A stretch of DNA of 64,000 nt from an uncultured Clostridia bacterium (GCA_937893605.1 CALBGG010000139.1:660-64659); one strand, 5' to 3'; numbered from the stretch's first letter, positions 28,493 through 50,493 are shown. Notes: generated from the letters alone by a model not told the origin. Numbers and translations are program-made.

Positions 28493-30442
28493 TTACAGCT
28501 TAACTCCTTCGGCTTCAAGCTCGCGCAAGCGGTTATAGAGCGTGCCGCGCGACATGCCGAGATAGCGAGCCGTCCTGGCCTTGTTTCCATTGTGCTTAAT
28601 AAGCGCTTCTATGATACGGCTTGCTTCCGCACCGCGCAGATCAAACGGCGCTCCTATTGAATCAACAGCCGCTGCAGCTGGCTTCTCCTCGAAATCATCG
28701 GCGGTATCCCCGATCTCGAGCTCACGGTCGTTCTCTGCCTTGAGCAGACTGCGTTCGATGACATTGCGCAGCTGCCGCAGATTGCCCGGCCAGTAGTTCT
28801 TTTTGAATTGCTCAACGGTCTCAGCCGAAACGCTGTAGATATTTTTGCCATAGCTCGCGGAGAGAAGCGTAACGAAATAATTGCTCAGCTCCTGCATATC
28901 GGCACGGCGCTCACGCAGAGGCGGAAGGTCTATGCGCAGAACGTTAAGGCGATAATATAGGTCCAGTCTGAACGACCCCTCCCTCACCTTCTGCAATATC
29001 TCGCTGCCGGCAGCGGCAATAACGCGCACATCGGTCTGTATGCTGCGGCGCGAACCGAGCGGTGTGACGATGCCATCCTCAAGAAAGCGCAGCAGGAAGC
29101 TCTGCATATCCTGCGACATTTCGGAAATGCCGTCAAGAAACATAGTACCGCCGTCAGCCTGAACAAATCTGCCCGGATTTTTCTCCGTTCCGACAAGGAT
29201 CTGGTCAATCGACTCGCGCGAAAATTCGCCGCAGCTTATCGGAACGAAGGGGCCGGCAAAGCGGGCGCTTGCATTGTGGATGGCCTGTGCGAAAAGCTCC
29301 TTGCCGGTGCCGGATTCCCCGGTTATAAGGACGTTCGCGGGGCTTGCCGCGGCGGCGCGGGCCTCACTTTTGACTTTTTTCATGCCTGCACTCACCGCAA
29401 TGATATCCTGAAAATTATAAACAGCGTTGTTGCGCTGAGTGCGGGCGCTGTATTTTCTTATCTGCTCGGCCGTTTTTATCGATACCTTGAGTCCTATGAC
29501 CTTGCCATTTTCCTTTATCGCAAGGCACTCGACATAGTATCTCTTGCCGACTCCGCCGAGAGCAATATTCCCCGCCGATATCTCCTTGCCAGTCCGCAGA
29601 GCCTTCAGCACGAAGGACAGCTCGGGGAAGCTGTCGCGCAGAGGTTTGCCTATGACGGAGGTTATGTGCATGTCAAACTCGTTTACAAAGCGGCTGTTTG
29701 CAAAGACTATGACCCCACTGTCATCGACGAGAAGCGTTATATCCGTGCTGCACTGGACCGACTGCTCGAGCAGGTGGAACCTGCGCTCAATGTGCGGATA
29801 AAGGATTCGGTTTTTATATGTGAAGTCGCCGACTTCAAGCATGAATGTCGCGGAGTTCAGCGAGTTCTTGAAGCATTTGTCAAGCGGCAGAAATATCACC
29901 GTCACGGCGTGAAAGCCCGTGCCTGCCGAGGTCTCTCCGTAGCGGGCTATGCAGGCGTATGGCGTCAGCAGGTCGCAGTAATGTCCCTCGCCCGCGCTGA
30001 AGCAGGTAACAAACGGCTTCTCCGGAGCGGTGTTGCCCGCAAAAACGCCGACGTTTTGAACGGAGAAGCGCGTTCCAATGCGCAGTCCCTTTGCCTTGAG
30101 TTCCTTGATAAGCGCCGTATTTCCGCTTTTATGGAAGGCCGTCAGCTGCGTATCAAGATAAAACATCGCGCCGCCCATACGCTCAAGTGCCGTATTGCGG
30201 CTTTCGTAATAGTCTCTGAAATAGGCAAGGTGGCACTTTGATATATCGTCAATGCGGTCAAACACATGCAGGTCGCGGCAATCATCGCCAAGTCGCATGA
30301 TGTGCGCCTGCGCGCCCGAATCGCGCGACTTTTCCCACGCTGCAACGGTTTTATCATATTTATGGTCATACTCGCCCAGCGTTCCGTCGAAAAACTGCTG
30401 CTTGAGCTGCTTTAAAATATCGTTTTTAGGAAGCTTATTCAT
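28493..30442 (-). CDS. AcoR-type bEBP-like regulator (sensory domain, PAS, AAA+, Fis HTH) lacking the GAFTGA loop
   Basis: Walker [14 protein letters not shown], Walker [28 protein letters not shown]. The C-terminal HTH reads [20 protein letters not shown]. Confidence 0.9.
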
Positions 30443-30487
30443 GACGTTTCACCATCCCTATGAACAGTTTTGCACATTTCAATTTGT

Positions 30488-30516
30488 ATTATACCAATCC
30501 TGCGCAGCTCGTTCAA
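30488..30516 (-). promoter_or_regulatory. candidate sigma-70 promoter of the 28493..30442 regulator
   Basis: On the minus strand: TTGAAC, 17 nt, TATAAT, with a TGG just before the -10 box. Confidence 0.4.
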
Positions 30517-30562
30517 CACATTTTAACACATATGTTCAAAAGTGTTCAAGCGCGACTTCCTG

Positions 30563-30591
30563 TTGTCCAACCCCGACGCGTTTGATATTAT
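30563..30591 (+). promoter_or_regulatory. candidate sigma-70 promoter of the acd-etfBA operon
   Basis: TTGTCC, 17 nt, TATTAT, about 30 nt upstream of the ATG. The only GG on the plus strand of this intergenic region is in the AGGAGG RBS, so no -24/-12 element is possible. Confidence 0.3.
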
Positions 30592-30622
30592 ATTGTCAAA
30601 TCCAAAACAGGAGGATGATCCT

Positions 30623-31765
30623 ATGAACACCGTTCTCACCGAAGAAGAACGAGAATTACAGAAGATATATAAGGAATACGCCGACGAGCGCATACGTCCG
30701 CGTGCATTGGAGATCGACAAGGGACTTTTCAGTGTGGAGCCGCTTTTAAAGGAAATGCACGAGCTGGGCTTCTGCGGTATCGTTATTCCGAAGGAATACG
30801 GCGGTCTCGGCAGTAGCTATGTTCACTATGTTTTGGCCGTTGAGGAGCTTTCCAAAGCCAGCGGAGCTGTAGCGAAATCCGTTTCCGGCCAAACGAACAT
30901 GTGCTTCCCAATCTTGAACTACGGCACCGATGAACAGAAGAAAAAATATGTCATACCCTGGGTAAAGGGTGAAAAACGCTCTGCTTTCACTCTCACAGAG
31001 CCAGGCGCTGGCTCGGATGCGGCCGGCATGCAGACAACCGCGGAGCTTATAGACGGAGAATTTGTCGTAAACGGCGCAAAGGCCTTCATAACCGGCGCGC
31101 GCGAGGCGGATTTTTTCCAGACTTACTGTCAGTTCAAGGCTCCGGACGGAACAAAAAGCCCCATATGCCTGCTGATCGATATTCACGAATGCGAAGGAAT
31201 AACCGTAGGCCGCAATGAAGATCTCATGGGCATGCGCGCAAGCTCGGTTGCCGAAGTCATTTTCGACAATGTTCACGTTCCGGCCGAAAATCTCCTCGGT
31301 GAGATCGGCAAGGGCTTCCATGCTGCAATGTCCACGCTCGACGCGGGCAGACTCGGCATCTCGGCAGTCTGCGTTGGCATGGCTCAGGACGCCGTTGATC
31401 AGACCGTAAAATACACTAAGGAGCGCGTGCAGTTCGGTAAGCGCATCTCGCAGTTTCAAAACACGCAGTTCAAGCTCGCCGAGTACCAAACCAAGGTAGA
31501 GGCTGCGCGTCTTATAGTATATAACTGCGCAAGCCGCATGGATAACGGCGAGCGCGTATCACACCTCTCGTCGATGGCCAAGTACTATGCTTCTGACATT
31601 CTCAACGAGGTCGTTCGCGGCTGTCTTCAGCTGCACGGCGGCTACGGCTACAGCAAGGAATTCGTCATTGAAAAGCTCTACCGCGACGCAAAGCTCACCG
31701 AAATATTCGAAGGAACGAGCGAGATTCAGAAGAAGATTATTGCCAAGTGGATGGGCGTTAAGTGA
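30623..31765 (+). CDS. acyl-CoA dehydrogenase
   Basis: ACAD three-domain pattern (FTLTEPGAGSDAAGMQTTA, YASDILNEVVRGCLQLHGGYGY, IFEGTSEIQ). The ATG at 30623 follows AGGAGG. Confidence 0.9.
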   Translation: MNTVLTEEERELQKIYKEYADERIRPRALEIDKGLFSVEPLLKEMHELGFCGIVIPKEYGGLGSSYVHYVLAVEELSKASGAVAKSVSGQTNMCFPILNYGTDEQKKKYVIPWVKGEKRSAFTLTEPGAGSDAAGMQTTAELIDGEFVVNGAKAFITGAREADFFQTYCQFKAPDGTKSPICLLIDIHECEGITVGRNEDLMGMRASSVAEVIFDNVHVPAENLLGEIGKGFHAAMSTLDAGRLGISAVCVGMAQDAVDQTVKYTKERVQFGKRISQFQNTQFKLAEYQTKVEAARLIVYNCASRMDNGERVSHLSSMAKYYASDILNEVVRGCLQLHGGYGYSKEFVIEKLYRDAKLTEIFEGTSEIQKKIIAKWMGVK

Positions 31766-31779
31766 TGGAGGTGCAGAAA

Positions 31780-32562
31780 ATGAATATTATTGTGTTTATA
31801 AAGCAGGTACCCGACAGCGATGAGGTTAAGCTCGACGAAAACGGAAATCTCATCCGAAACGGCGTGAGAACGGCGATAAACTCCGTGGACAAAAACGCGC
31901 TTGAGCTTGGACTAAGTCTGCGCGACCATGTCGGTGGCAAGGTTACGGCGGTCACTATGGGGCCTCCGCAGGCAAAGGATGTTCTCAAAAGGGCATTGTT
32001 CATGGGCTGCGACGAGGCAGTGCTCCTGTCCGACCGCGCCTTCGGCGGTGCGGACACGCTCGCAACGGGTTATGTTCTTTCCATGGCAGCAAAGAAGCTC
32101 GGCAGCTTTGACCTTGCCATTTTCGGCAACAAGGCCTCCGACGCAGAGACCGCACAGACGGGACCCGTAACGGCGGGCTTCCTCGGTCTGCCGCTGGTCA
32201 CGAGCGTTGAAAGTCTGGAACTTGAGGGGCGCTCAATAATCTGCCTCCGCAGTTTCACCGGCGGCACTGAGACTTCCAGGACCGAGCTTCCGGCTGTCGT
32301 CACAGTAACCCCAACCATAAACACTCCACGCTTTATGACTCCCGCGAATGTTATCGAGGGTCTCAAAAAAGGCATAACGGTTTGGAATCTTGCAGACCTC
32401 GGCTGCGACGAGGCTCGCTGCGGTATCAAGGGCTCGCCCTCACGCACAAAGCGCGTCACAGCGCCGCAGGTTAAGGAAGTCGACTCGACCGTTATACGCG
32501 GAAGCAGCGATGAGACAGCCGATGTCTTGGCCGGGCTTCTTGCGGACATGCATCTTATCTGA
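31780..32562 (+). CDS. etfB: electron transfer flavoprotein beta subunit
   Basis: MNIIVFIKQVPDSDEVKLD, VTMGPPQA, SDAETAQTGP. Confidence 0.9.
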   Translation: MNIIVFIKQVPDSDEVKLDENGNLIRNGVRTAINSVDKNALELGLSLRDHVGGKVTAVTMGPPQAKDVLKRALFMGCDEAVLLSDRAFGGADTLATGYVLSMAAKKLGSFDLAIFGNKASDAETAQTGPVTAGFLGLPLVTSVESLELEGRSIICLRSFTGGTETSRTELPAVVTVTPTINTPRFMTPANVIEGLKKGITVWNLADLGCDEARCGIKGSPSRTKRVTAPQVKEVDSTVIRGSSDETADVLAGLLADMHLI

Positions 32563-32575
32563 TGGAGGAAGAAAA

Positions 32576-33550
32576 ATGAGCAATGATATTTGGGTTTTTG
32601 CCGAGACGAATAACGGCAAGCTTTGCGATATAGTCCCCGAGCTGCTGACAAAGGGCAGGCATCTCAAGGCGCACAAGGGCGGTGAACTCGTCGCCGTAGT
32701 GCTGGGCGCTGCCGACGAGGCCGTCATCAACGAGCTCTCCGAATACGGTGCCGATAAAGTCATTATCGGCGAAAACGCGGCGCTTTCAAGCTACAGTGCG
32801 CGCACCTACGCGCAGGCGATGACCGATCTCGTCAAAAAATACGAGCCCGAAATTTTCATAATTCCAGCAACAGGCATAGGCCGCGAGATAGCTCCCCTTA
32901 CCATGCAGGCGCTCGGCACTGGCCTTACAGCCGATGCTCTCGACCTCATTTTTGACGAGGATGGCGACTTCATTCAGGTCACTGCGGGCTTCGGCGGCAA
33001 TATTCTGGCGCATATCTGCATCGGCGAAAAACGCCCGCAAATGGTTACCGTCTGCGCAAAGGTATTCGACGCAGAGCCCGTAGGCACTCCTCACACAGCA
33101 AATGTCGTCCGTGATGCGGTCAAATGCGAAAAGGATCCCGCATACGAGCTTATAAAGGCTGTAGCCGCAGAAACGGCGCACACTCAGTTAAAGGATGCAA
33201 AAATAGTGGTTGCCTGCGGGCGCGGCATCAAGAAGAAGGATGACCTCGACATGATAGCCGATTTTGCCTCCCGCATCGGAGCCACGCTTGCCTGCTCAAG
33301 GCCGCTTTCCGACTGCGGCTGGATGCGGCACGAAAGCCAGCTCGGTCAAAGCGGCTGCACCGTCAAGGCGGAGCTCATTATAAACATCGGCATCTCCGGT
33401 TCCGCTCAGTATCTTGCCGGTATGCAGAACTCCAAGTGCATTGTGAGCATAAATACAAACGACTCGGCGCCGATCATGGCGGTATCTAACTACGCAATCG
33501 TCGCCGATTACCGTCAGTTCATCCCAGCGCTTCTCAAAAAATTGCACTGA
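32576..33550 (+). CDS. etfA: electron transfer flavoprotein alpha subunit
   Basis: IWVFAE..., then the C-terminal FAD-binding region (VVACGRGI, QLGQSGCTVKAELIINIGISGSAQYLAGM). Confidence 0.9.
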   Translation: MSNDIWVFAETNNGKLCDIVPELLTKGRHLKAHKGGELVAVVLGAADEAVINELSEYGADKVIIGENAALSSYSARTYAQAMTDLVKKYEPEIFIIPATGIGREIAPLTMQALGTGLTADALDLIFDEDGDFIQVTAGFGGNILAHICIGEKRPQMVTVCAKVFDAEPVGTPHTANVVRDAVKCEKDPAYELIKAVAAETAHTQLKDAKIVVACGRGIKKKDDLDMIADFASRIGATLACSRPLSDCGWMRHESQLGQSGCTVKAELIINIGISGSAQYLAGMQNSKCIVSINTNDSAPIMAVSNYAIVADYRQFIPALLKKLH

Positions 33551-33558
33551 CGCAAGAC

Positions 33559-33591
33559 AAAAGCTCCCCGGTCCAGGCCGGGGAGCTTTTT
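33559..33591. terminator. bidirectional terminator between convergent operons
   Basis: AAAAGCTCCCCGG-loop-CCGGGGAGCTTTTT. Confidence 0.8.
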
Positions 33592-33605
33592 CTATACTAA
33601 ATTCA

Positions 33606-34862
33606 TTATATAATACCTTTTTCGCGGAAAGAAGAAATGCTTCTATCATCATAGCCGAGGATCTTTTTCAGTATATCCTCAGTGTCCTGACCGAGAGCCG
33701 GGCCGCCTCGCCAAACCATACCGGGTGATACACTCATTTTCGGAGCTACGCCGAATGCAGTAACGTCAACGCCGGTGGACTGGTCAACAAAATTGACAAA
33801 ATCCCCGCGGCTGAGGTACTGTTCGTTTTTCATGCACGCCTGCGCATCGTTAACTCTCGCGCAGGGAACACGGCCGGCGCGCATCGCTTCCTCGATCTCG
33901 TCGGCGGTGCGAGACAGACACCATTCGTTTATGAGGCTGTCAAGCTCCCTCCCCTCGGGTGAGTTGACGGCAGTTTTGTCCTTTGAGGTTTTTTCGTAGG
34001 GGTATTTTTCAGCATCCAGTCCTGCGGCGTTCATAAAGCGCTCGAATACGCTTTTGCCCACAGCGCCGATACTGACATAAACTCCGTCTTTACTGGTGAA
34101 CAGATCCCACGGCTGAAAGCCTATTGCCTTTGTTCCACAGCGCTGAACCTCGGCAAGTCCGAGCGATGACATGGTGAATGCATCGCGCATTACGCGAGCC
34201 ATGGACTCAAACTGCGCAACATCAACGACCTGACCGCGCCCGGTGTTCTTCGCATCGATATAGGCAGCCAGCATACCGAAGAGCGCAAACAGCGCCGTTA
34301 TGTAGTCACCCAGCGAGGGCTTTACAATAAGCGGCGGTCTGTCCTCATAGCCGTTGAACAGTGCATAACCCGAAAACGCCTGCCCGGTCATATCATACGA
34401 TGCCTGATTGCAGATCTCGGGCCGTCCACCGAATTCGCTGTGCCCGTAACCGGAAATATGAACGATTACAAGGCGAGGATTGACCTTCAGAATTTCGTCG
34501 TCGTCGATACCGAGCTTTTCGAGCCAGACCATGTTTTCGATGAAGATATCGCTCTGAGCGATGAGCTTATAAAATATATCTTTCACGTCGTGATCCTTAA
34601 GGTCAAGCTCGAGCGTCATTGACAAGCGGTTGCGCGCATCCTGTATCCACGACGAGCCCGCAGCGCCCTGTTCAGTTTTCTTAACCGGCGGAAAGAAGCG
34701 ATATGTGTCGCCGATACCTGGGCGCTCAATCTGAATCACCTCTGCGCCGAAATCGGCCATCATGGTAACCGCGAAGGGCATCGCTATGAGAGAGCCCGCA
34801 CCGACGACACGCAGTCCCCGGAGCGGTCCGAATTCCGGTATGATAAAATTTCTCTTGTCCAT
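33606..34862 (-). CDS. family III (CaiB/BaiF) CoA-transferase
   Basis: GPLRGLRVVGAGSLIAMPFAVTMMADFGAEVIQIERPG is the family N-terminus. Confidence 0.9.
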   Translation of the reverse strand: MDKRNFIIPEFGPLRGLRVVGAGSLIAMPFAVTMMADFGAEVIQIERPGIGDTYRFFPPVKKTEQGAAGSSWIQDARNRLSMTLELDLKDHDVKDIFYKLIAQSDIFIENMVWLEKLGIDDDEILKVNPRLVIVHISGYGHSEFGGRPEICNQASYDMTGQAFSGYALFNGYEDRPPLIVKPSLGDYITALFALFGMLAAYIDAKNTGRGQVVDVAQFESMARVMRDAFTMSSLGLAEVQRCGTKAIGFQPWDLFTSKDGVYVSIGAVGKSVFERFMNAAGLDAEKYPYEKTSKDKTAVNSPEGRELDSLINEWCLSRTADEIEEAMRAGRVPCARVNDAQACMKNEQYLSRGDFVNFVDQSTGVDVTAFGVAPKMSVSPGMVWRGGPALGQDTEDILKKILGYDDRSISSFREKGII

Positions 34863-34921: not shown

Positions 34922-36139
34922 TCAGATGTTTTTTGCACCCCACCGCTCAAGCAGAGCCTTTGCTTCCTCTTTGCTCTTGCCCCAGCTTTTAAGGATCTCA
35001 TAGCTGTTCTCGCCTATGCGTGGAGCAAGCTGCGGCTTGCGATCCTCATCGCTGACATCGGAGAAATCCGCAAAATAGGCACAGTGCTTATTAGAGGCAA
35101 CATCTGTTCCTTCCCATTCGGGGTACATGGGGAAGTTGACCCACCATCCGAGACGGTTGTACTCTTCGTCGTTCCATGCCTCCTCGGGCGTAAGCACCGG
35201 GCAGCACGGTACGCCAGCCGCGTCGAGCTTATTATATGCTTCTCTGGAATCCTCAAAGGTGTTTATCCAATCGGTAATAATCTGTTCGACTACGGTATGG
35301 TGCTTGCAGCGATCCGGCATGGTGACAAAGCGTGGGTCTTCTTTATATTCGGGATGCCCAATGCAGTCGCACAGCGCATTCCATGTTGCCGGCGATACGG
35401 CGCCAATAACCATTGACATAGTCTTACCTGTGTAAATTCCGTAAGGGCAAAGGTTTGTATTGTGGTTGCCTGTACGTCTCTGAATGTGACCTTTGTGATT
35501 ATGAATCTGCAAGGTGCTGGAATTTATGTGCAGAACATTGCGCACAAGTGAGAAATCGACAAATTGGCCGCGGCCGGTCTTGAGCTTGTGGATGTAAGCA
35601 AGTAATGTGGATGCAAACATACCCTCAGCGCCGCTGGTATCGCCGATGACGGAGCCGATGCGGGTCGGTGCGCCGTCAGCTTCTCCGGTCTGTGCATTTA
35701 TTCCGCTCATCGCGACAGCGCATATGTCATAGGAGGGCTTGTTGCTGTATTTTGAGGGCTTCACGCCGAAGGGTGTCAGCGAAGCGTAAATTATGCCGGG
35801 ATTCACCTTGCGCATATCCTCGTAGCCAAGGCCAAACTTCTCCATAAAGCCGGGTTTATTGGAAACAAGTACTATATCAAAATTTTTGACCTGCTCAAGG
35901 ATCAGCTCCTGCGCTGCGGGATCGCTGAGCTTCATCTCGATCGATTTCTTGCCGCGATCCTTGCCGCAGGCGTAGGTGGACATACCGTTTGCAACGTAAG
36001 CGAATCTGCGTCCTGCCTCTCCGCCTGGTACCTCTACCTTTACGACCTCTGCACCGTAATCGGCAAAGTACGAGCCGACGATCGGGCCGGCGGCATTGGT
36101 AGTGAAGTCAAGAACTTTTACACCTTCAAGCATTTTCAT
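34922..36139 (-). CDS. family III CoA-transferase, tandem paralog B
   Basis: MKMLEGVKVLDFTTNAAGPIVGSYFADYGAEVVKVEVPGG. The ATG at 36139 follows GGAGGA. Confidence 0.9.
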   Translation of the reverse strand: MKMLEGVKVLDFTTNAAGPIVGSYFADYGAEVVKVEVPGGEAGRRFAYVANGMSTYACGKDRGKKSIEMKLSDPAAQELILEQVKNFDIVLVSNKPGFMEKFGLGYEDMRKVNPGIIYASLTPFGVKPSKYSNKPSYDICAVAMSGINAQTGEADGAPTRIGSVIGDTSGAEGMFASTLLAYIHKLKTGRGQFVDFSLVRNVLHINSSTLQIHNHKGHIQRRTGNHNTNLCPYGIYTGKTMSMVIGAVSPATWNALCDCIGHPEYKEDPRFVTMPDRCKHHTVVEQIITDWINTFEDSREAYNKLDAAGVPCCPVLTPEEAWNDEEYNRLGWWVNFPMYPEWEGTDVASNKHCAYFADFSDVSDEDRKPQLAPRIGENSYEILKSWGKSKEEAKALLERWGAKNI

Positions 36140-36244
36140 GTTTTTTCCTCCTAATATTTTGTGATTCAATCTAAATTCTCAACCGGGAAGATTTTCCTCC
36201 AAGAGAGAGCTGTAATCTTATTTCTTAGATTGGGTCGCCCAATA

Positions 36245-39972: not shown

Positions 39973-40740
39973 TTATTTGTTGCGGTTTTCTCTGTTGAAT
40001 GCCTTGACAAGCTGCTGATTTCGGTTTTCGATCTTTATTGCGGTGTCGAGACTGTCGACCGACTCCATCATGTTCAGAAGCTGCTTGCTGTAACGAAGCG
40101 CCTCCTTCGAGTAGCCGGCGAGCACTTTTGCCTTTTCCAGCGCTGCATTGTCAAGCTCAGAAAGCGGATAGCATCCGGATGCGTAGCCGAGGCTCATTGC
40201 CTCATCCGCGAGCATATATCTTCCCGTTAGCAGGATATCTCTCGCGACACCGTCACCTATAAGGCGCGGCAGCATGTATGCGCAGCCGAGGTCTCCGCAG
40301 CTCATGCTCATTTTAAGCAGCGGGCAGGAAAACCTGACGTCATATGCTATAAGGCGGATATCGGAGGCCATCGTAAGGAAGAAGCCTCCCCCGACGGCAT
40401 AGCCGTGCGCGGCGGTAATAACTACCTGCTTTGCCTCGTGCACCAGGACGATGAGCTCTCTGAGCTCTTCCTGAAACGCGTAGGACTTTGCGACACTGTC
40501 GCGGTCGCCCTCGCCGGGGAAGAGGCTCATGAAGTCCGCTCCCGTACAGAAGGCTCTCTCGCCCTCGCCGCGGATGATGAGCACCTTCGTCTCATCATCC
40601 GCTTTGAGGAGTCGGAAGAAGTGCAGCATATCGTCAAAAGCCTCGCGTGACCACGAGTTGAGCTTTTCCGGCCGGATGAAGCTCATCACGGCTATTCCCG
40701 GCTCGGGAAGCTCTACACGTATATGCTCATAATCATACAT
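39973..40740 (-). CDS. enoyl-CoA hydratase/isomerase (crotonase fold)
   Basis: RAFCTGADF, AAHGYAVGGGFFLTMASDIR, GDLGCAYMLPRLIG. Confidence 0.9.
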   Translation of the reverse strand: MYDYEHIRVELPEPGIAVMSFIRPEKLNSWSREAFDDMLHFFRLLKADDETKVLIIRGEGERAFCTGADFMSLFPGEGDRDSVAKSYAFQEELRELIVLVHEAKQVVITAAHGYAVGGGFFLTMASDIRLIAYDVRFSCPLLKMSMSCGDLGCAYMLPRLIGDGVARDILLTGRYMLADEAMSLGYASGCYPLSELDNAALEKAKVLAGYSKEALRYSKQLLNMMESVDSLDTAIKIENRNQQLVKAFNRENRNK

Positions 40741-40747
40741 ACGCTGA

Positions 40748-43881: not shown

Positions 43882-44038
43882 TTTCTCATAATCCTCTATG
43901 CTTTTAAGCTTTTCTTCCTTCCCTGACCCTCCGCGCCTGAACCGCCGGGAGAAAACCCGGCAGCCCAGGGAGAATAGGGGGAGGAGAACACTTGAACCGG
44001 CTTTTACGCGGCGCTGCGCCGCGCCGGATCAGGCTGAT

Positions 44039-46072
44039 TTATATACTTGCGGCCAGTTTGTAGGCAGATTCGACCGCATCCGGGATTCTTGCCACCTTTA
44101 CAGCGTCGCCGATACAGTCAACGTTCTTGACCTTGCCGACGAGTTGCTCATACATATCATTATTGGGCTTTGCGCCTGCTGCTATAACGACGGTATCTGC
44201 CGGCAGAGTCTGGCGGCCTTCCGCATTTTCAACAACGACGCCTTCCTTGGTTATCTCGATGACCTTTGTCTCCTTGAGCATCTTGGTGCCCAGCTGCTTG
44301 GTACGCGCAATTATCGACCAGCGGCTGCCGGGGTTAATGTCGGGAGCAAACTTCTTGCCCATCTCGACGATCGCAACATTGTAAACGCCGTGGTTGAGCA
44401 ACTGTTGGAGCTTCTCGTAGGGCTCGGTCTTGTATATCATCATGAATCTTAACTCATCGGCCGTGAGGGTACCGATCTCGCCGATGTACATTGCGACCTC
44501 GACGCCGACATCGCCGCCGCCGACGACAACCACGTTTTTGCCGAGCTCAGCCTTGCCTTCAAATACATCCCATGCATGAACGACAGGAACACTGGGATCT
44601 CTTGGGATCGGAGGAATGGTAGCCTTGGAGCCGCATGCGAGAACGACGCGGTCATAATCCTTGGCGGCTGCGATTATATCCTCTGCGGTTGCTTCCTTGT
44701 TGAGAATTATCTCAACTCCCAGCTCGCGGCAGGTACGCTCGAGCCACTGGCCAAAATAGCGGATATCATAGCGGCGAGGAGGAGTTGCGGCAAACAACGA
44801 AAGGCCGATGGTTCGGTTGCGTTTTTCCCAAATGGTGACCTTGTGGCCGCGCAGAGCTGCGACACGGGCAAACTCCATACCGGCAGGGCCTGCACCGATG
44901 ACGAGGATTTTCTCGAGATGCTCACTCTTCTTCTCTGTAGGCATTAGGCCGTTTTCATCCTCCAGCTCCTCCTCACGGTTGCACTCGTAGTTCCCGATGC
45001 ATCCGATGGGCTTGCTGATCATTGCCATGTCCAGGCATTTGGCGTTGCAGCCGACGCAGGGGCGGATATCTGAAGCCTTGCCTGCTATCGCCTTGTTGAC
45101 GACGTCGGGGTCAGCCAGGAAGGGGCGCCCCATTACGATTGCGTCGAAATCGCCGCGATCGACGAGCTCCTCTGCCTTTTCTATGTTCATACGCATGCCC
45201 TGTGCGACGGGAGCCTTGACGCGCGCTTTGATCTGGCGGCCGAGATATGCCCATGCGCCGTGGGGAACTTCCATGGTGATTAGGGGAACAGCCGATTCAT
45301 GCCAGCCCGCAGTGATAGAGAAGCCGTCGACATAGCCGGTTTTGTCCAGCAGCTCGCAAATCTCTGCGATATCGTCGCCGTTGCAGCCGCCGTCCATGAA
45401 GTCACTGCCGCTTACGCGCAAAGAAATGGGATAGTCGGGGCCGACCGCCGCACGCATACCCTCGAGAGTCTCGACCATGAAGCGGCAGCGGTTCTCAAGC
45501 GATCCGCCATACTCGTCGGTGCGGTGGTTTGTAAGCGGAGAGAAAAACTGGCCGTACAGATAGCCTGAGTTGGTCTCGATCTCAATACCGTCAAATCCGG
45601 CCTTCTTGGCAATAACTGCGGCGTCTGCCTGCCACTGCACGAATTCCTTGATTTCCTCAACGGTGAGCTCCTTAGGCATCTCAAAGTGAGTGAATCTGCC
45701 GGGTATGGGGGACGGAGCAACAGCCTGCTCGCCTTGAATGCTGGCACGGCTTGCGCATCTGCCGCGATGCATAAGCTGCGCAAAAACCTTGCTGCCACTC
45801 ACGTGAATGACATCTGTAAGCTTCTTGAGCGAAGGGATATATTTTTCATCGGTGAGCATTGCGCCGTGGTTGGGATTATAACGAACCTTGTCCCACTGCA
45901 TATTTGCAAAGATGATCAGCCCCACTCCTCCCAATGCGCGGCGTCTGTAAAATTCCACAACATCATCCATTATGAAGCCGTCGACAGTGTGTCCTATGCT
46001 CATAGGCGACATGATCACCCTGTTTTTAAGCTCAAGCTTGTTGACCTTAAAAGGCGTGTAAAGTCTTTTCAT
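44039..46072 (-). CDS. OYE-type NADH:flavin oxidoreductase fused to an FAD/NAD(P) domain (2,4-dienoyl-CoA reductase / 2-enoate reductase / BaiCD-BaiH family)
   Basis: N-terminal TIM-barrel (NRVIMSPM, QLMHRGR). Fe-S motif CVGCNAKCLD...CIGNYEC. ILVIGAGPAGME and VVVVGGGDVGVEVA are Rossmann folds. The ATG at 46072 follows GAGGAGG. Confidence 0.9.
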   Translation of the reverse strand: MKRLYTPFKVNKLELKNRVIMSPMSIGHTVDGFIMDDVVEFYRRRALGGVGLIIFANMQWDKVRYNPNHGAMLTDEKYIPSLKKLTDVIHVSGSKVFAQLMHRGRCASRASIQGEQAVAPSPIPGRFTHFEMPKELTVEEIKEFVQWQADAAVIAKKAGFDGIEIETNSGYLYGQFFSPLTNHRTDEYGGSLENRCRFMVETLEGMRAAVGPDYPISLRVSGSDFMDGGCNGDDIAEICELLDKTGYVDGFSITAGWHESAVPLITMEVPHGAWAYLGRQIKARVKAPVAQGMRMNIEKAEELVDRGDFDAIVMGRPFLADPDVVNKAIAGKASDIRPCVGCNAKCLDMAMISKPIGCIGNYECNREEELEDENGLMPTEKKSEHLEKILVIGAGPAGMEFARVAALRGHKVTIWEKRNRTIGLSLFAATPPRRYDIRYFGQWLERTCRELGVEIILNKEATAEDIIAAAKDYDRVVLACGSKATIPPIPRDPSVPVVHAWDVFEGKAELGKNVVVVGGGDVGVEVAMYIGEIGTLTADELRFMMIYKTEPYEKLQQLLNHGVYNVAIVEMGKKFAPDINPGSRWSIIARTKQLGTKMLKETKVIEITKEGVVVENAEGRQTLPADTVVIAAGAKPNNDMYEQLVGKVKNVDCIGDAVKVARIPDAVESAYKLAASI

Positions 46073-46166: not shown

Positions 46167-46182
46167 TGCAAACGCCGTGCCA
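46167..46182 (-). promoter_or_regulatory. sigma-54 (-24/-12) promoter
   Basis: The minus strand reads TGGCAC-GGCGT-TTGCA with the canonical GG-N10-GC spacing. It lies about 95 nt upstream of the 46072 ATG and directly downstream of a bEBP gene. Confidence 0.8.
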
Positions 46183-46251: not shown

Positions 46252-46294
46252 CAAAAAGAGCCAACAGTCTGCTCTCGGCAGGCAGTTGGCTCTT
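46252..46294 (-). terminator. rho-independent terminator after the bEBP gene
   Basis: On the minus strand, AGAGCCAAC...GTTGGCTCT stem followed by TTTTT. Confidence 0.7.
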
Positions 46295-46315
46295 GCTGAC
46301 TATTATTTGCTCCTG

Positions 46316-48268
46316 TTATTTGTTATCATTAAGGTCTTTTGCGGCATTGAGTATCCTATACAGTGTCGAGCGTGAGACTCCCAGCTCCTGCGCAACCTTA
46401 GATTTGTTGCCCTTAAATTCTACCATGAGTTTTTTTGCCATTTCAAGGCGCTGCTTTGTGAAGAAATCGCTGATCATGCGGAGCTCCGTTCCCTCGGACT
46501 CGGAGGCGGTCTCCTGCGCGGCGGGTTTGAGCTTGCTTATGCCCTGCGGCAGATCCTCAAGCTCAATATTGGCTCCGCTGCATACGATGGCACTGTATTC
46601 CATGCAGTTACGCAGCTCGCGCACATTGCCAGGCCAGCTGTACTCAGCCATGGCGATGGTCGCCGCGGCGCTTATTCCGCGAATGTTCTTCCCGTTTTCA
46701 AACGCAAAGCGCTCAAGGAAGTACTCTGCAAGCTCCTTTATGTCCTCCCTGCGTCGCCTGAGCGGTATCATGGTGAGGTTTATTACATTCAAACGATAGT
46801 ACAGATCGGCTCTGAACGTTCCGTCGGCGATGCATTTTGTGAGGTCTTTGTTTGTAGCTGTAATTATTCGCACATCAACGCTTATCGGTTTTGTGGCACC
46901 GATGCGGGTGATGCAGTTTTCCTCCAGTGCGCGCAGCAGAACGCTCTGCATTTCAACGGGCATTTCGCCTATCTCGTCGAGAAACAGCGTGCCGCCGTCG
47001 GCAAGCTCAAACTTGCCCTTTGCTCCGGTTCGATTGGCACCCGTGAATGAGCCTCCTACATAACCGAAAAGCTCGCTTCCGATGAGTTCCCGCGGTATGG
47101 CAGCACAGTTTACGGCAACAAATGGCTTATCCTTTCGCTGGCTCGTACAGTGTATAGCGTTCGCAAAAAGCTCCTTTCCGGTTCCCGATTCGCCCTGAAT
47201 TAGTATTGGACTTGAGGTAGTTGATATCTGCTCGGAAAAACGCTTGAGCTGCACAAAATTATCCGAAACGCCGATAAGATCGTCAAAGGTGTAGCGTGCG
47301 AAGTTGCCGTTAGCAGGCTTTTCCTCTTTTTTTGTTTTGCCTTTATATATGGTAATAAGGGTTCCGAATTGACGTGAATTCGCATTTATCGGACTGCAAT
47401 CCGCAAAATACTGCTCGCGTAATCCGCTTCCCCGAACAAGCTCCAACGGCTTGCCGACCACCTTTTTGCCCTCAGCGATCTTCGACACGAGAGACACCAT
47501 CTCCGGGCAGATATCGCTCAAGAAACTGTTTATAGTCTCCTTCGGGTGATAGTTGTAAAAATCATAAAATATGTCGTTTGCAAAGGTTATCGAGCAGCTG
47601 TTATCGACCATAATAACGATGTCGTTCGTACTGCTGCGGCTATACTCATTGCGCTGCATAATATCGCGCATTATGACGTCCTTCGTAACGTGGCCGGTGG
47701 TTATAATGGTCTCGGTCGATTCAAGGAGCTTGAAGAGATTGTATATGCGCTCATCAAAATTTTCCTTATAGGTGATTATCATAATAAAGCCGTTCCTGCC
47801 ATATTTACCCTTGATTCTGAAAGCAAAAGTGACATATGGCTTGAGTGCATCAAGATAGTGTTCGTCTCCGACAACCCACGCGCTTTCGGGACTTCTTGCT
47901 GCCATTACCGCAGCGTTAGTTCCCGCACAGTTTTCACCGAGATTACCGCCGAGCTTAATATTCTTGGCAGAAAGCTCATCCTTGAGCTTTTTATCGCCGT
48001 AACGGCCGAAAATATCCAAATTTTCATACAAATACAGCAAAACAGCGTTATTTGCTGCCAGCGTATCGGCAGTTGCCTGATAGTATTCCGGAGTGCTTTT
48101 TCTCATGAGGTGAACATGACCCGTGACATGTTTTTTGCACCGTTCCCTGTCCCCTTCGGTGACTTCGGGCAAAGCCCATGTATGCGAGTCAAGTCCGTTT
48201 TGTTCGCACATATACCTTGAGCTTTCAAGCATGCTCATATACTCTTTTCCGCGGTTCAAAAAATCCAT
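46316..48268 (-). CDS. sigma-54-dependent transcriptional activator (AcoR-type: sensory domain, PAS, AAA+, Fis HTH)
   Basis: [26 protein letters not shown] (GAFTGA-type loop), GGTLFLDEIGEM, RIITATNKD, YYRLNV. The C-terminal HTH reads NKSKVAQELGVSRSTLYRIL. The ATG at 48268 (MDFLNRG) is preferred over the TTG at 48370. Confidence 0.9.
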   Translation of the reverse strand: MDFLNRGKEYMSMLESSRYMCEQNGLDSHTWALPEVTEGDRERCKKHVTGHVHLMRKSTPEYYQATADTLAANNAVLLYLYENLDIFGRYGDKKLKDELSAKNIKLGGNLGENCAGTNAAVMAARSPESAWVVGDEHYLDALKPYVTFAFRIKGKYGRNGFIMIITYKENFDERIYNLFKLLESTETIITTGHVTKDVIMRDIMQRNEYSRSSTNDIVIMVDNSCSITFANDIFYDFYNYHPKETINSFLSDICPEMVSLVSKIAEGKKVVGKPLELVRGSGLREQYFADCSPINANSRQFGTLITIYKGKTKKEEKPANGNFARYTFDDLIGVSDNFVQLKRFSEQISTTSSPILIQGESGTGKELFANAIHCTSQRKDKPFVAVNCAAIPRELIGSELFGYVGGSFTGANRTGAKGKFELADGGTLFLDEIGEMPVEMQSVLLRALEENCITRIGATKPISVDVRIITATNKDLTKCIADGTFRADLYYRLNVINLTMIPLRRRREDIKELAEYFLERFAFENGKNIRGISAAATIAMAEYSWPGNVRELRNCMEYSAIVCSGANIELEDLPQGISKLKPAAQETASESEGTELRMISDFFTKQRLEMAKKLMVEFKGNKSKVAQELGVSRSTLYRILNAAKDLNDNK

Positions 48269-48415
48269 ACTCACACCGCCTTTCCTCCTCGCAAAATTTT
48301 TGCGATATACAAAAATTAATCTTTTAACGCCTACGTGGTTTATTGTATCACTAAGTGCATTGTGTGTCAAATTGTTAAAAGTGTATCATCCTTGGTCAGC
48401 TCGTATGATGCAATA

Positions 48416-48432
48416 TGTATCGTTACGATACA
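48416..48432. promoter_or_regulatory. perfect 8+1+8 palindrome TGTATCGT-T-ACGATACA
   Basis: It lies in the divergent bEBP/rpoN intergenic region. The function is not established. Confidence 0.3.
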
Positions 48433-48596
48433 CATTCATATTTTTAGCACGTGTAAGTTTATATTTTAGGGCTTGATTTTGTTCAGTTGTTTTGATAGTA
48501 TCATTAGAAGTGAGAAAAGTGTTTCAAATCGTCAAAATGTAAACCAATTCAATTAACCGGTCTTTTGAGGTATTTATCCTCGCGTTTTGTAAAGTC

Positions 48597-49952
48597 ATGA
48601 AGCTTAGCAACAAGGTCACAATTAAACAGACCATCGCCCCTGCTACGATACAACTGCTGGAAATGGTGCAGATGAATACGATCGAGCTGGGCAGCTTTCT
48701 GACCGAGCAGGCCATGGAAAATCCCGCGATCGATATAGACGAGCTCGCGCAGGCATTCAAGAGCAGCGAGCTTTCAGCCAAGGTTGAATGGCTCGATTCC
48801 TTCTCTCAGCGGCGCGGAGAGAGCTTTTCCGCCGCCGATGACGACGACACCCCTGAAGGTCAAATTGCCGACCGCAGCGAGGCATCGGATGTTAGATCAT
48901 ATCTTCTGAGTCAGATCTTAAGCTCCGATGCCGACCGAGAGACAGAAAAGCTCTACCGTTATCTCATTGGCTGCGTCGACAGCCGAGGCTTTCTCTCCGA
49001 GGACTGGGGAATGATTGCAAAAAAGATCGGCGTTGACGAGGAAAAGATCACTCGTTGCGTCGCGGTAATGCGTACGCTTCATCCTGCCGGCATCTGTGCC
49101 GAGGATGTGCGCAGCTGCCTTGCCGCACAGCTCGCCGCTGACGACCGCATTGCCCGCAGGATAGTCGAAAGTTATCTCGAGGAGCTCTCACGCGGACACT
49201 ACTCAGCCATAGCAAAGGCCTTGGGCGTTACAGAAAGCTCGGTCAGAAGCGCGGAAAAACACATAAAGCGGCTCTACCCCTACCCTTCCTCGGCGCTGGA
49301 GGGCGACAGGGGCGATGACAGCCTGTATGTTTATCCCGACCTGAGTATAGAACATACCGCCGAGGGGCTGAGCGTTTCGCTCTGCCGCCCGTTCAGTCCG
49401 CACCTTAAGATAAGCTCATTTTGCAGCGAACTAAGGAATTCAACGGACGATCCCGCAGTTCTCGGCTATATTGAGGAACGTCTATCCGCCGCAGGCAGGC
49501 TTTATCGGAATGTCTGCCGCTGCGAAAAGACGCTGCTCAGCTGCTTTGAAAAGCTTGCCGAAACGCAGAGCGCGTTTTTCAGCGGCACTTCGGACAGCTT
49601 GAAGCCCATGACGCTCGCCGACATCGCCGACTCAACTGGACTGAGCATATCTACCGTAAGTCGAGCCGTAAAGGGTAAATACATTCAGTGCAGCCGTGGT
49701 GTTATCCCTGCGAAGCTGTTTTTCACGGCAAAAATAGAGAGCGGCAGTGGCAAACACTCAACAGACGCCGCGAGGAAATATCTCCGCGAGGTTATCGCCG
49801 GAGAGGATAAGTCCGCACCCCTGTCGGACGCACAGCTGAGTGTTCTTTTGGGTAAAAAGGGCTTTGCAATATCGCGGCGCACCGTTGCAAAATACCGCAA
49901 GGCGCTCGGCATTCCGGGCACCTATGTACGAAAGCAAAAAGAGGAGCTTTAA
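48597..49952 (+). CDS. rpoN: RNA polymerase sigma-54 factor
   Basis: Region I (TIKQTIAPATIQLLEMVQMNTIELGSFLTEQAMENPAI), an HTH, and the C-terminal RpoN box ISRRTVAKYRKALGIPG. Confidence 0.9.
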   Translation: MKLSNKVTIKQTIAPATIQLLEMVQMNTIELGSFLTEQAMENPAIDIDELAQAFKSSELSAKVEWLDSFSQRRGESFSAADDDDTPEGQIADRSEASDVRSYLLSQILSSDADRETEKLYRYLIGCVDSRGFLSEDWGMIAKKIGVDEEKITRCVAVMRTLHPAGICAEDVRSCLAAQLAADDRIARRIVESYLEELSRGHYSAIAKALGVTESSVRSAEKHIKRLYPYPSSALEGDRGDDSLYVYPDLSIEHTAEGLSVSLCRPFSPHLKISSFCSELRNSTDDPAVLGYIEERLSAAGRLYRNVCRCEKTLLSCFEKLAETQSAFFSGTSDSLKPMTLADIADSTGLSISTVSRAVKGKYIQCSRGVIPAKLFFTAKIESGSGKHSTDAARKYLREVIAGEDKSAPLSDAQLSVLLGKKGFAISRRTVAKYRKALGIPGTYVRKQKEEL

Positions 49953-49953
49953 C

Positions 49954-50493
49954 ATGATATATGAATTTGAAGGCAAGCGCCCGCAGATCGACGCAAGCAC
50001 ATATATAAGCGACTCGGCCGTCATTATCGGTGATGTGACCATCGGAGCGCGGTGCTATATAGGTCCCGGTGCCGTTATCCGCGGCGACGAGCGCCCGATA
50101 TGGATAGGTGACGAGAGCGCCGTCGAGGATCTTTGTCTTATCCATGTCGGCGGACCGGACGCCAAGACCGACGGCTGCCACATCGGAAAGCGCGTGACCA
50201 TAGGTCACGGCGCAATAATCCACGGAAATCATATCCGCGACGGAGCAAACATCGGCATGGGCGCTATAATAAGCCTGTTTGCGGACATCGGCGAATACGC
50301 CGTTGTGGCCGAGGGCGCGGTTGTTAAAAAGCATCAGTCCATCCCGCCGCGAGTGGTCGTCGGCGGAGCACCGGCAAAAGTGCTGCGTGAGCTTGAGGAT
50401 AAGGATATTTACGCTTGGGAGCGCAGCAAGCAGACCTATATTGACCTTGCCGAACGCTGCAAAGCGCCCGGCGGTCTCGTGAGACTTGACTGA
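49954..50493 (+). CDS. CaiE/PaaY-like gamma-carbonic-anhydrase-fold (hexapeptide repeat) protein
   Basis: YEFEGKRPQID...VIIGDVTIGARCYIGPGAVIRGD...IGHGAIIHG...Y.DLAERC follows the E. coli CaiE layout, including the C-terminal tail. The ATG lies 1 nt after the rpoN stop, and the GAGGAG RBS sits inside rpoN. Confidence 0.85.
   Translation: MIYEFEGKRPQIDASTYISDSAVIIGDVTIGARCYIGPGAVIRGDERPIWIGDESAVEDLCLIHVGGPDAKTDGCHIGKRVTIGHGAIIHGNHIRDGANIGMGAIISLFADIGEYAVVAEGAVVKKHQSIPPRVVVGGAPAKVLRELEDKDIYAWERSKQTYIDLAERCKAPGGLVRLD

Follow-up and report, generated by a model that had tools for sequence, protein, structure and literature searches.

A 64-kb stretch of DNA from an uncultured Clostridia bacterium (64,000 nucleotides, nt; GCA_937893605.1 CALBGG010000139.1:660-64659; hereafter the window) contains, at 28493-50493, an island of 16 genes that includes rpoN, a unit encoding an acyl-CoA dehydrogenase (ACAD) and an electron-transfer flavoprotein (ETF), and a nine-gene operon behind a -24/-12 promoter of the sigma-54 type. 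On balance, we lean slightly towards the view that the island encodes an inducible, CoA-dependent pathway that would reduce and isomerise an imported organic anion without chain shortening and use it as an electron sink, a proposal that commits itself to no particular substrate. The reductive direction is favoured because a chain-shortening enzyme was seen in none of the cluster variants examined and because, by similarity, its ETF belongs with those that power the reduction of enoyl-CoA in characterised anaerobic complexes. A preliminary description of this DNA had proposed that a ligase primes an anionic substrate and that transferases then recycle the CoA, and this still appears to be the most economical logic for the gene set.

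The window was examined with an open reading frame (ORF) map and Pfam scans of its proteins, with NCBIfam equivalog models at their own cut-offs, and by sequence matching to the PDB. All gene families of the preliminary description, and its perfect -24/-12 promoter, are present at the coordinates collected in Table 1 (ORF map, Pfam and motif scan). Its picture of a single sigma-54-centred island, however, gives way to five transcription units, i.e., the regulator gene R1; acad1-etfBA; the nine-gene operon; the regulator gene R2; and rpoN with a gene for a hexapeptide-repeat protein (Hexa). A sigma-54 promoter stands only before the nine-gene operon, and the promoter of acad1-etfBA is sigma-70-like. 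The genes on the two flanks are housekeeping genes (tsf, rpsB and parB; VTC and Cthe_2159), and the island is therefore taken to be bounded as given above.

The nine genes, in the order OYE, ligase (LIG), DASS carrier, crotonase-fold protein (ECH), ACAD2, CoATa, CoATb, CoATc and CoATd, run on the minus strand from 46072 to 33606 with internal gaps of 7-157 nt, and no hairpin with a T-tract was found on that strand within them. The promoter TGGCACGGCGTTTGCA, which has the GG-N10-GC consensus and lies 5' of the first gene, is the sole match in 64 kb to TGGCAC-N5-TTGCW with one mismatch tolerated; with two mismatches tolerated, no further credible -24/-12 site appeared in any upstream spacer of the window. 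At least one such match occurs in 95 of 100 shuffled sequences, so that a single match is not rare by chance, and TGGCACGGCGTTTGCA is credible because of its position and conservation, not its rarity. Indeed, TTGGCA[CT]G-N4-TTGC is the lone conserved block 5' of OYE across the orthologous loci that have this region (76-97% OYE identity), the exceptions being L114 and L115 (locus labels are ours), where no R2 gene adjoins OYE. The five spacer bases differ among loci (GGCGT, GGATT, GGAAA, GATGT, GTTTT, GTTGT and GCTTT), and distant clusters carry -24/-12 sites before their own first genes, e.g., DASS, etfB, CoATa or ACAD. Motif scans of the window found no second sigma-54 promoter before acad1-etfBA or rpoN. 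At the far end, the perfect bidirectional terminator AAGCTCCCCGG-tcca-GGCCGGGGAGCTTTTT closes both the nine-gene operon and the converging etfA, and the terminator after R2 (AAGAGCCAAC...GTTGGCTCTTTTT) is predicted to insulate the sigma-54 promoter from R2 read-through. Gaps, terminators and conserved promoter together bear out the operon as previously drawn, and the order OYE-LIG-DASS-ECH-ACAD2-CoATa-CoATb, retained at 76-84% OYE identity, supports it as a unit. Two GC-rich hairpins without T-tracts (window 43990-44036 and 43940-43975) were also observed in the 157-nt gap that follows the OYE stop codon (79-157 nt in orthologues); a role in transcript processing or stability, or as a weak attenuator, is conceivable. 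A riboswitch or attenuator in the sigma-54 leader was considered and rejected: the leader folds no better than shuffled sequences (z = -0.56) and matches no Rfam family.

The window proteins were compared with the ORFs encoded at about 85 related loci from metagenomes and genomes, which fall into about 20 cluster types. In the same and sister species (OYE 91-97% identical) the arrangement is Hexa<RpoN<R2>OYE-LIG-DASS-ECH-ACAD2-CoATa-b-c-d, with R1-ACAD1-EtfBA also at the far end in L007 and L009. At 76-84% OYE identity, L091, L092 and L117 have R2>OYE-LIG-DASS-ECH-ACAD2-CoATa-CoATb(±c) and lack rpoN and ETF genes in the vicinity, and L144 is a partial contig with OYE-LIG-DASS-ECH-ACAD2. Group III clusters, common in the human gut (OYE 70-74%), read CoATa-EtfB-EtfA-OYE-CoATx-ACAD2-DASS-SSF-LIG-CoATd with no crotonase, and L124 has a LysR regulator; more distant clusters (OYE 44-65%) recombine the same families with MFS or unknown carriers and sometimes a short-chain dehydrogenase/reductase (SDR). 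The recurrent core of these loci consists of OYE, ACAD2, CoATa, CoATd and EtfBA, often with an activator and rpoN, and its members are orthologue-like across groups (OYE 63-73%, CoATa 61-72%, CoATd 58-65%, ACAD2 about 50% identical). The 22-kb block that had been described as one contiguous unit is thus present and bounded here, but it is, judging from gene order, a lineage-specific arrangement around a smaller conserved core, because ACAD1-etfBA, rpoN and CoATd are unlinked to the operon in the nearest other species examined (L091, L092). Homologues of window proteins, and a small number of additional ORFs put through Pfam, included no hydroxyacyl-CoA dehydrogenase, thiolase or lyase.

Two side observations concern the plasticity of these clusters. 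One metagenome-assembled genome (MAG; GCA_964535405.1; L089, L090 and L092) has three paralogous OYE-centred CoA clusters with differing transporters, ligases and ETF arrangements, a gene content that implies a family of pathways for related substrates. In a natural deletion variant seen in two independent assemblies (L140, L141), OYE is cut at residue 455 and joined directly to etfA, and the ligase-to-CoATd genes are gone. The genes left are R2, rpoN with the hexapeptide gene, R1 and acad1-etfBA. The nine-gene operon seems dispensable, because these loci have lost most of it.

The first operon gene encodes an Fe-S flavoenzyme of FadH architecture, with an FMN-type OYE domain, a 4Fe-4S Cys motif and an FAD/NAD(P)H domain. 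Its C339, C342, C346 and C358 are invariant in 21 orthologues, and the equivalents of FadH Tyr166 and His252 are retained in the alignment. The best solved relatives are the 2-naphthoyl-CoA reductase NCR (6qkg, 336 bits) and FadH (1ps9, 318 bits), and the scores for the BilR model (404 bits against a cut-off of 750) and for mycofactocin-OYE fall far short. A further clue comes from L170, a 3.78-Mb metagenome contig on which (2778-20784) CoATa (69%), ACAD2 (56%), a Glu-less ECH (55%), the ligase (50%), DASS (38%) and an activator (44%) recur, together with genes for a thioesterase, EtfAB and ETF-QO/FixX-like proteins. There, an FMN protein of the NMO family (PF03060) occupies the OYE slot and an AcetylCoA_hydro-type transferase replaces the family-III transferases. 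A four-gene unit of a cultured Bacillaceae, Solibacillus ferritrahens (L171:6391-11064), likewise comprises a ligase, a CoATa-like protein (50%), a Glu-less ECH and an NMO protein. The NMO family includes FabK-type enoyl reductases, and the replacement supports a putative ene-reductase role of OYE on CoA esters, because another FMN protein of an enoyl-reductase family fills the same slot. The racemase-like protein (CoATa, see below), the crotonase-fold protein and the reductase appear to form a functional trio, and the Solibacillus unit could be studied in the laboratory.

The AMP-forming ligase matches 4-coumarate-CoA ligase best among solved structures (224 bits), and its homologues outside the cluster family are at most 51% identical and named long-chain acyl-CoA synthetase. 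The carrier, previously called a CitT/TtdT-like exchanger, belongs to DASS by Pfam, but its 170 bits with TIGR00785 stay below the cut-off of 198.6, and neither CitT nor TtdT is represented by a model among its listed matches. The NCR and 4-coumarate ligase similarities would also suit alicyclic or hydroaromatic acids (quinate, shikimate, cyclohexene-carboxylates), converted as CoA esters by eliminations and ene-reductions towards cyclohexanecarboxylate, with the racemase-like protein epimerising ring C1 and the crotonase shifting ring double bonds. NCR is a ring-reducing enzyme, both ACADs match cyclohexane-1-carbonyl-CoA dehydrogenase models (281 and 157 bits against a cut-off of 650), the ring alpha-carbon would be alpha-branched like the substrates of the racemase MCR, and the open-access literature yielded no usable gene set for the long-known gut conversion of quinate and shikimate. 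Every one of these similarities, however, lies far under the family cut-offs, a dedicated dehydratase is absent, DASS carriers are known chiefly for di-/tricarboxylates and sulfate rather than polyhydroxy monocarboxylates, and the open-access literature on Streptomyces genes for cyclohexanecarboxyl-CoA gave nothing usable; we consider this substrate class quite unlikely. Were it true, the way in which microbes turn quinate or shikimate into precursors of hippurate would become open to direct tests.

A bile-acid-like modification is another scheme suggested by the flavoenzyme. On a bulky steroid, bile or isoprenoid acid activated by the ligase, OYE would act in the manner of BaiCD/H, the transferases like BaiF, CoATa like the racemase AMACR and ACAD2 like LCAD. 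The bai operon of Clostridium scindens (bile-acid 7-alpha-dehydroxylation) resembles the island in having an AMP-ligase, family-III transferase(s), FadH-type flavoenzyme(s), a transporter and an inducible operon, and in working on CoA thioesters without chain shortening. OYE scores 386 bits with the BaiCD model (NF041087), LCAD is the second-best solved relative of ACAD2, and AMACR acts on bile-acid intermediates. The BaiCD cut-off is 825, however, and no SDR or SnoaL-type domain (BaiA-type SDR, BaiE dehydratase) occurs in the 16 island proteins, which instead include ACAD/ETF, a racemase-like protein, a crotonase, a DASS rather than an MFS or BASS carrier, and sigma-54 control. A KEGG-based survey does list "baiB" in Limivicinus MAGs (PMC12466152), which led us to consider a bile-acid ligase; this identity was rejected, as the homologues are labelled long-chain acyl-CoA synthetase and never bile-acid ligase. 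We regard the bai-like scheme as highly improbable.

The four proteins of family PF02515 had been described as four CoA-transferases; three are of the transferase type, and CoATa carries the catalytic triad of the M. tuberculosis alpha-methylacyl-CoA racemase MCR (1x74), with flanking motifs that are nearly identical at all three residues. In the alignment, SGHDLNYIS faces AGHDINYIS (His126), ADIGGG faces GDFGGG (Asp156) and GAIEPH faces GAIEPQ (Glu241), while in SUGCT and in CoATb, CoATc and CoATd a Tyr takes the place of the MCR His and the IEP motif is missing. Every CoATa orthologue (49-90% identity) has the His and Glu motifs; the Asp is likewise present throughout, in L157 within D-L-(gap)-C-G instead of DxGGG. 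The best PDB match of CoATa overall is still a transferase (SUGCT 224 bits vs MCR 209 bits). CoATa is a candidate acyl-CoA C-alpha racemase/epimerase, and the locus offers a compact test system for a family-III protein that has apparently switched from transferase to racemase chemistry. CoATb scores best with the succinyl-CoA:mesaconate transferase model (204 bits against 700), and the nearest named models of the family-III proteins are mesaconate, glutarate/hydroxymethylglutarate and oxalate transferases, all far under cut-off. CoATc is absent from L092, and elsewhere two or three transferase genes follow CoATa; CoATb/CoATc (34922-37465) is, by its sequence identity, a recent tandem duplication whose copy number varies among related species. 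CoATd, with orthologues 58-65% identical in group III clusters, comes closest to CaiB (NF002914, 248 bits against 413; best PDB match CaiB, 164 bits).

ACAD2 retains the catalytic Glu of its family, as do its orthologues, and its best solved relatives are 2pg0 (317 bits) and LCAD (220 bits); apart from its own species, a genome scan with ACAD2 found no more than generic ACADs, none above 40% identity. The FadH-type OYE, the non-hydratase crotonase-fold protein and CoATa with its MCR triad give the core a resemblance to the auxiliary enzymes of beta-oxidation (FadH/DECR, enoyl/dienoyl-CoA isomerases, alpha-methylacyl-CoA racemase). The island differs in that an anion carrier, transferases and a sigma-54 switch accompany these enzymes, and the hydratase, 3-hydroxyacyl-CoA dehydrogenase and thiolase are absent from the related clusters examined.

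Racemase plus ACAD is the classical logic of 2-methylacyl-CoA oxidation, and the island could accordingly be read as an entry module that works oxidatively. It would import and CoA-activate a saturated (di)carboxylate with an alpha-methyl branch, e.g., methylsuccinate from other gut bacteria, racemise it to the isomer taken by ACAD2 and have ACAD2 dehydrogenate it with electrons passing to ETF; later catabolic steps would be encoded elsewhere, and OYE would clear conjugated side products as FadH does in beta-oxidation. The MCR signature and the normal catalytic base of ACAD2 agree with this scheme, the ETF-QO/FixX-like genes of L170 would suit electron disposal, and the aerobic methylsuccinate pathway employs a transferase, an epimerase and an ACAD (PMC12290011). 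Against it stand the related clusters examined, which showed neither a Glu-bearing hydratase nor a dehydrogenase, lyase or thiolase, and the rank of OYE as the most conserved and first operon gene, ill-suited to an auxiliary role. The ETF, moreover, is by similarity of the bifurcating type, which in the characterised Bcd and CarC complexes runs enoyl-CoA reduction in anaerobes. We hold the oxidative module to be possible though doubtful.

The bifurcating assignment comes from the acad1-etfBA unit, whose presence on the plus strand at 30.6-33.5 kb agrees with the ACAD-EtfBA operon reported before (Pfam). ACAD1 matches C. difficile Bcd (5ol2_C, 339 bits) and CarC (6fah_C, 331 bits) best in the PDB and scores 394 with the AcrC model (cut-off 640). 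The top five PDB matches of EtfB (CarD, Cd EtfB, 7koe, LctB and 4kpu; 158-194 bits) are all electron-bifurcating ETFs, and the score for a human-type ETF is 94 bits. Bcd/EtfAB and CarCDE are likewise electron-bifurcating complexes that run enoyl-CoA reduction in anaerobes. The car system of caffeate respiration (CarABCDE, Acetobacterium woodii) and Bcd-EtfAB are thus the closest relatives of ACAD1 and EtfB, and car shares ligase priming and transferase cycling with the island. The similarity is nonetheless moderate (331-339 bits over 380 residues), the island ETF lies in a separate sigma-70-type unit, and the island adds a second ACAD and OYE. Within the R1-acad1 spacer, motif scans found no -24/-12 element; the -10 element and TGAACAC/GTGTTCA-type repeats are kept across L007, L009 and L141. 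As a side observation, these half-sites (window about 30480-30560) form a near-perfect nested palindrome in L007, L009 and L141 and are a candidate R1 operator; the GTGTTCA heptamer is not enriched window-wide.

The crotonase-fold protein, previously called a CaiD-like hydratase, has its oxyanion-hole motifs, but a gapless alignment to human ECHS1 shows both hydratase Glu residues (E144, E164) replaced by Phe and Leu (GGGFF...CPLL). The roles given here to residues of FadH, crotonases, MCR and DhaR follow the literature, for MCR its mutagenesis and structures. The replacement is kept in the orthologues of L091, L092, L109, L117, L144 and L170, and unrelated ECH paralogues of other clusters retain GGGxE...PE. 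A hydratase role is unlikely, because both catalytic Glu residues are replaced and the replacement is conserved. A conserved crotonase without the hydratase Glu makes the locus a test system in its own right. The Asp of its SCGDLG motif aligns by eye with Asp204 of dienoyl-CoA isomerase, which is only a hint.

This substitution also bears on the carnitine-type scheme, in which a hydroxylated anion would be CoA-activated, dehydrated by the crotonase and reduced by ACAD/ETF, with a DASS exchanger in place of CaiT. The claim that every cai function except CaiT is represented holds at the level of families: by Pfam, counterparts of CaiA, B, C, D, E and FixAB exist (ligase, CaiB-type transferase, ACAD, crotonase-fold protein, ETF and hexapeptide protein), the logic of CoA recycling and reduced-product excretion is shared, and CaiB is the best model and best PDB match of CoATd. 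It fails at the hydratase Glu, which CaiD is assumed, from crotonase chemistry, to need, and all cai/fix equivalog models stay under cut-off: CaiA (NF002885) 185 bits for ACAD1 and 138 for ACAD2 against 540, CaiE 107 against 305, FixA 88 against 219 and FixB 113 against 549. The CaiD model is not in the 25 best of the 63 families that match the crotonase-fold protein, and the BCCT antiporter CaiT is absent, the transporter here being DASS. The scheme moreover has no use for the extra Fe-S flavoenzyme and the racemase-like protein, which are the most conserved members, and group III clusters lack the crotonase yet keep the rest. Collectively, these points make a cai/fix-like pathway very unlikely.

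Among other characterised systems, the bbu cluster of Emergencia timonensis (gamma-butyrobetaine to trimethylamine) is similar in pairing an ACAD-family enzyme with class-III transferases acting on a CoA thioester in gut Clostridia, and its two divergent class-III transferases function only together (PMC8364193). OYE, ligase, crotonase and ETF are missing from bbu, which instead includes a BCCT transporter, a 2x[4Fe-4S] ferredoxin and a thioesterase (PMC8364193); these three are absent from the island. The island belongs to the computationally defined class of Fe-S flavoenzyme gene clusters catalogued in gut anaerobes (Pascal Andreu et al. 2020; gutSMASH), which share a PF00724+PF07992 enzyme with transporter, ETF or flavodoxin partners and are mostly uncharacterised; the part of that catalogue examined mentions no CoA-transferases, acyl-CoA dehydrogenases, ligases or sigma factors and does not describe the architecture or regulation of the island or its racemase and crotonase features (PMC7371122). 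The 39 groups of enhancer-binding proteins (EBPs) in Table 1 of PMC6615313 do not include the nine-gene operon. No characterised collinear homologue turned up in the open-access PMC/bioRxiv literature, which for matching clusters or sigma-54 regulons in Clostridiales offered generic catalogues only. Assigning a named pathway by hidden Markov model was also rejected, as no island enzyme reaches an NCBIfam equivalog cut-off. The earlier statement that the island matches no known pathway therefore stands for cai, bai and bbu, and for car the comparison is limited to the CarC/CarD similarity.

In the reductive pathway that we favour, R2 would be made from its own sigma-70-type promoter, its N-terminal/PAS sensor region detecting the inducer, and would activate the sigma-54 holoenzyme at TGGCAC-N5-TTGCA, giving OYE-ligase-DASS-ECH-ACAD2-CoATa-b-c-d as one mRNA that ends at the bidirectional terminator; R1, unable to contact sigma-54, would control the sigma-70-type acad1-etfBA promoter. 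The DASS carrier would import the organic anion and may exchange it for product. The AMP-ligase would make the first CoA thioester, and the Tyr/Asp-type transferases CoATb/c and CoATd would then move CoA from the finished product onto newly imported substrate, or from one carboxyl group to another. On the thioester, the Fe-S flavoenzyme would reduce a conjugated C=C with NAD(P)H, ACAD2 with the neighbouring bifurcating-type ETF would handle an alpha,beta C=C, MCR-like CoATa would epimerise an alpha-substituted C-alpha, and the Glu-less crotonase may act as a proton-shuffling isomerase or similar enzyme rather than a hydratase. The product would then leave the cell.

Several points weigh against this proposal. 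The catalytic roles are all inferred from families and residues, the flux may be reductive or oxidative, and the MCR-like signature may be compatible with transferase activity of CoATa. Coupling of ACAD2 to ETF is uncertain, because L140 and L141 keep acad1-etfBA without the operon and L091 and L092 have no ETF nearby. The ligase and DASS carrier are not orthologous between cluster groups (25-30% identity) and distant clusters use SSF, MFS or unknown carriers; because ligase, DASS and carriers differ in this way, the cluster family probably covers several substrates. As for the substrate here, an alpha-branched unsaturated dicarboxylate (itaconate, mesaconate or citraconate) converted to methylsuccinate is a tentative and rather doubtful guess, made because the racemase needs an alpha-branch in known cases, the carrier is of the dicarboxylate type and there are several family-III proteins. 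ACAD2 is distant from methylsuccinyl-CoA dehydrogenase (6es9, 127 bits), and the transferase matches to mesaconate and glutarate models lie far under cut-off, both of which count against the guess.

In gut bacteria a reductase that works without CoA converts itaconate to methylsuccinate, an anaerobic route through CoA is not known, and itaconate fermenters are stated to be unknown (PMC12290011). If the guess holds, anaerobic CoA-based use of branched C5-dicarboxylates becomes testable, and should the compound taken up be a dietary acid or, like itaconate, an immunometabolite of the host, the island would represent a new microbiota route that removes or transforms it with energy conservation. 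The boldest version, i.e., a previously undescribed anaerobic CoA-thioester pathway of flavoenzyme, racemase-like protein, Glu-less crotonase, ACAD/ETF and transferases, by which abundant uncultured gut Oscillospiraceae would use a host- or diet-derived acid of the itaconate/mesaconate family, or a hydroaromatic acid, as an energy-conserving electron sink under a private, fast-evolving sigma-54 that travels with the cluster, is unlikely as a whole.

The two regulators had been described as AcoR-type proteins bracketing the block; only R2 proves fit for sigma-54. R2 has a GSFTGA loop (ELFGYVGGSFTGA), an intact Walker A and an intact Walker B (FLDEI), and a strong sigma-70-type promoter of its own (TTGACA-17-TACAAT, 48342-48370(-), promoter scan). 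In R1, whose best NCBIfam match is DhaR (257 bits against 551), the GAFTGA loop is deleted and the Walker-B Glu replaced (DG or DD), a loss repeated in the 63%-identical R1 orthologue of a sister species (L140/L141); activators in related clusters other than the R1 type all retain G[AS]FTG[AS]. DhaR is an EBP-family regulator acting at a sigma-70 promoter. R1 is probably a degenerate paralogue that regulates acad1-etfBA independently of sigma-54, because the loop and the Walker-B Glu are gone. Typing of the sensor domains by Pfam up to E <= 1 yielded just a weak PAS domain.

The presence of rpoN itself, also reported before, is borne out by its RpoN box (SRRTVAKYR) and by TIGR02395 (324 bits against 277), making it the only island gene above an NCBIfam equivalog cut-off. 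RpoN is by far the fastest-diverging island protein: over L007, L009, L093, L109 and L141 it is 71-74% identical where OYE, DASS and ACAD2 are 97-99%, and in a sister species with OYE at 91% it is 49% identical. The gene of the island is nonetheless intact. rpoN lies <10 kb from OYE in at least seven divergent cluster types, a proximity that suggests a cluster-dedicated sigma-54, and the locus is a test system for a sigma-54 gene found repeatedly beside one kind of catabolic cluster and diverging faster than its targets. The hexapeptide gene, whose corrected start lies one base past the last base of the rpoN stop codon, had been termed CaiE/PaaY-like; it is apparently co-transcribed with rpoN, its best match is gamma-carbonic anhydrase (147 bits against 250), and PaaY (132 against 320) is missed as is CaiE. 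The order Hexa<RpoN< is kept in two species.

Table 1. Features of the island, with positions counted from the first base of the window.
Feature	Position	Strand	Basis or remark
R1, degenerate EBP-like regulator	28493..30442	-	sensor without Pfam match, PAS, AAA+, HTH_8
Sigma-70-type promoter TTGTCC-17-TATTAT, TG-extended, for acad1-etfBA	30563..30591	+	promoter scan
ACAD1, Bcd/CarC-like acyl-CoA dehydrogenase or enoyl-CoA reductase	30623..31765	+	Pfam; start corrected
EtfB, bifurcating type by similarity	31780..32562	+	PDB ranking; start corrected
EtfA	32576..33550	+	Pfam ETF and ETF_alpha; GGAGG before start codon; start corrected
Bidirectional intrinsic terminator AAGCTCCCCGG-tcca-GGCCGGGGAGCTTTTT	33561..33592	.	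read from sequence
CoATd, CaiB-like family-III CoA-transferase (Tyr/Asp type), last operon gene	33606..34862	-	Pfam
CoATc, family-III CoA-transferase, tandem paralogue of CoATb	34922..36139	-	71% identity to CoATb; start corrected
CoATb, family-III CoA-transferase	36245..37465	-	Pfam CoA_transf_3; start corrected
CoATa, MCR-signature family-III fold	37494..38675	-	alignment to M. tuberculosis MCR 1x74
ACAD2, acyl-CoA dehydrogenase	38735..39910	-	Pfam; catalytic Glu (GTSE)
Non-canonical crotonase-fold protein (ECH_1)	39973..40740	-	Pfam; oxyanion-hole motifs present
DASS/ion-transporter-superfamily anion carrier	40748..42142	-	Pfam Na_sulph_symp 163 bits, CitMHS 73 bits
AMP-forming acyl-CoA ligase, FadD/4CL-like	42208..43881	-	Pfam AMP-binding
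OYE, FadH/NCR-type Fe-S flavoenzyme, first operon gene	44039..46072	-	Pfam Oxidored_FMN and Pyr_redox_2; start corrected
Sigma-54 promoter TGGCACGGCGTTTGCA	46167..46182	-	about 83 nt 5' of OYE start codon; unique match in window; conserved
Intrinsic terminator after R2 (AAGAGCCAAC...GTTGGCTCTTTTT)	46252..46296	-	read from sequence
R2, sigma-54 activator	46316..48268	-	Pfam Sigma54_activat 229 bits; ORF extends to 48370; start corrected
rpoN (sigma-54)	48597..49952	+	AID, CBD and DBD domains; RpoN box
Hexapeptide-repeat protein (gamma-carbonic-anhydrase/PaaY/CaiE-like)	49954..50493	+	apparently co-transcribed with rpoN; start corrected

The start codons marked in Table 1 were corrected from gene calls on identical metagenome contigs, ribosome-binding sites and alignments to solved structures. 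Copies of the locus that are identical or 97-99% identical come solely from the gut of humans and other mammals, in metagenomes and in MAGs whose labels read uncultured Oscillospiraceae or Clostridiales UBA9128, and close protein relatives carry the labels Firmicutes bacterium CAG:240 or Candidatus Limivicinus. The host of the island is an uncultured gut Oscillospiraceae bacterium; among named organisms, Candidatus Limivicinus and "Firmicutes bacterium CAG:240" come closest to it. The nine-gene operon is common in gut data, because the protein clusters of its members are large (768 to about 2,000 sequences each), and no cultured carrier of it occurs among the matches examined. Two GTDB species-representative records titled Hallerella sp. 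(L009) and Collinsella aerofaciens (L010) contain the Oscillospiraceae locus at 97% identity, and these contigs are probably mis-binned.

An Rfam scan of the window returned zero RNA families. The motif AAAAGTGT occurs in 5 copies in 64 kb (1.27 expected), four of them in the three regulatory spacers of the island (30538, 46227, 48377 and 48515); the two copies of the R2-rpoN spacer are kept in a sister species, one abuts the -35 of the R2 promoter, and the motif may be an operator or a promoter element. As an operator shared by R1 and R2 it was rejected and remains a lead only, the copy 5' of the -24/-12 promoter not being kept in other strains. Finally, the divergent R2-rpoN spacer contains a perfect 7-3-7 inverted repeat, TGTATCGTTACGATACA, at window 48416-48432.

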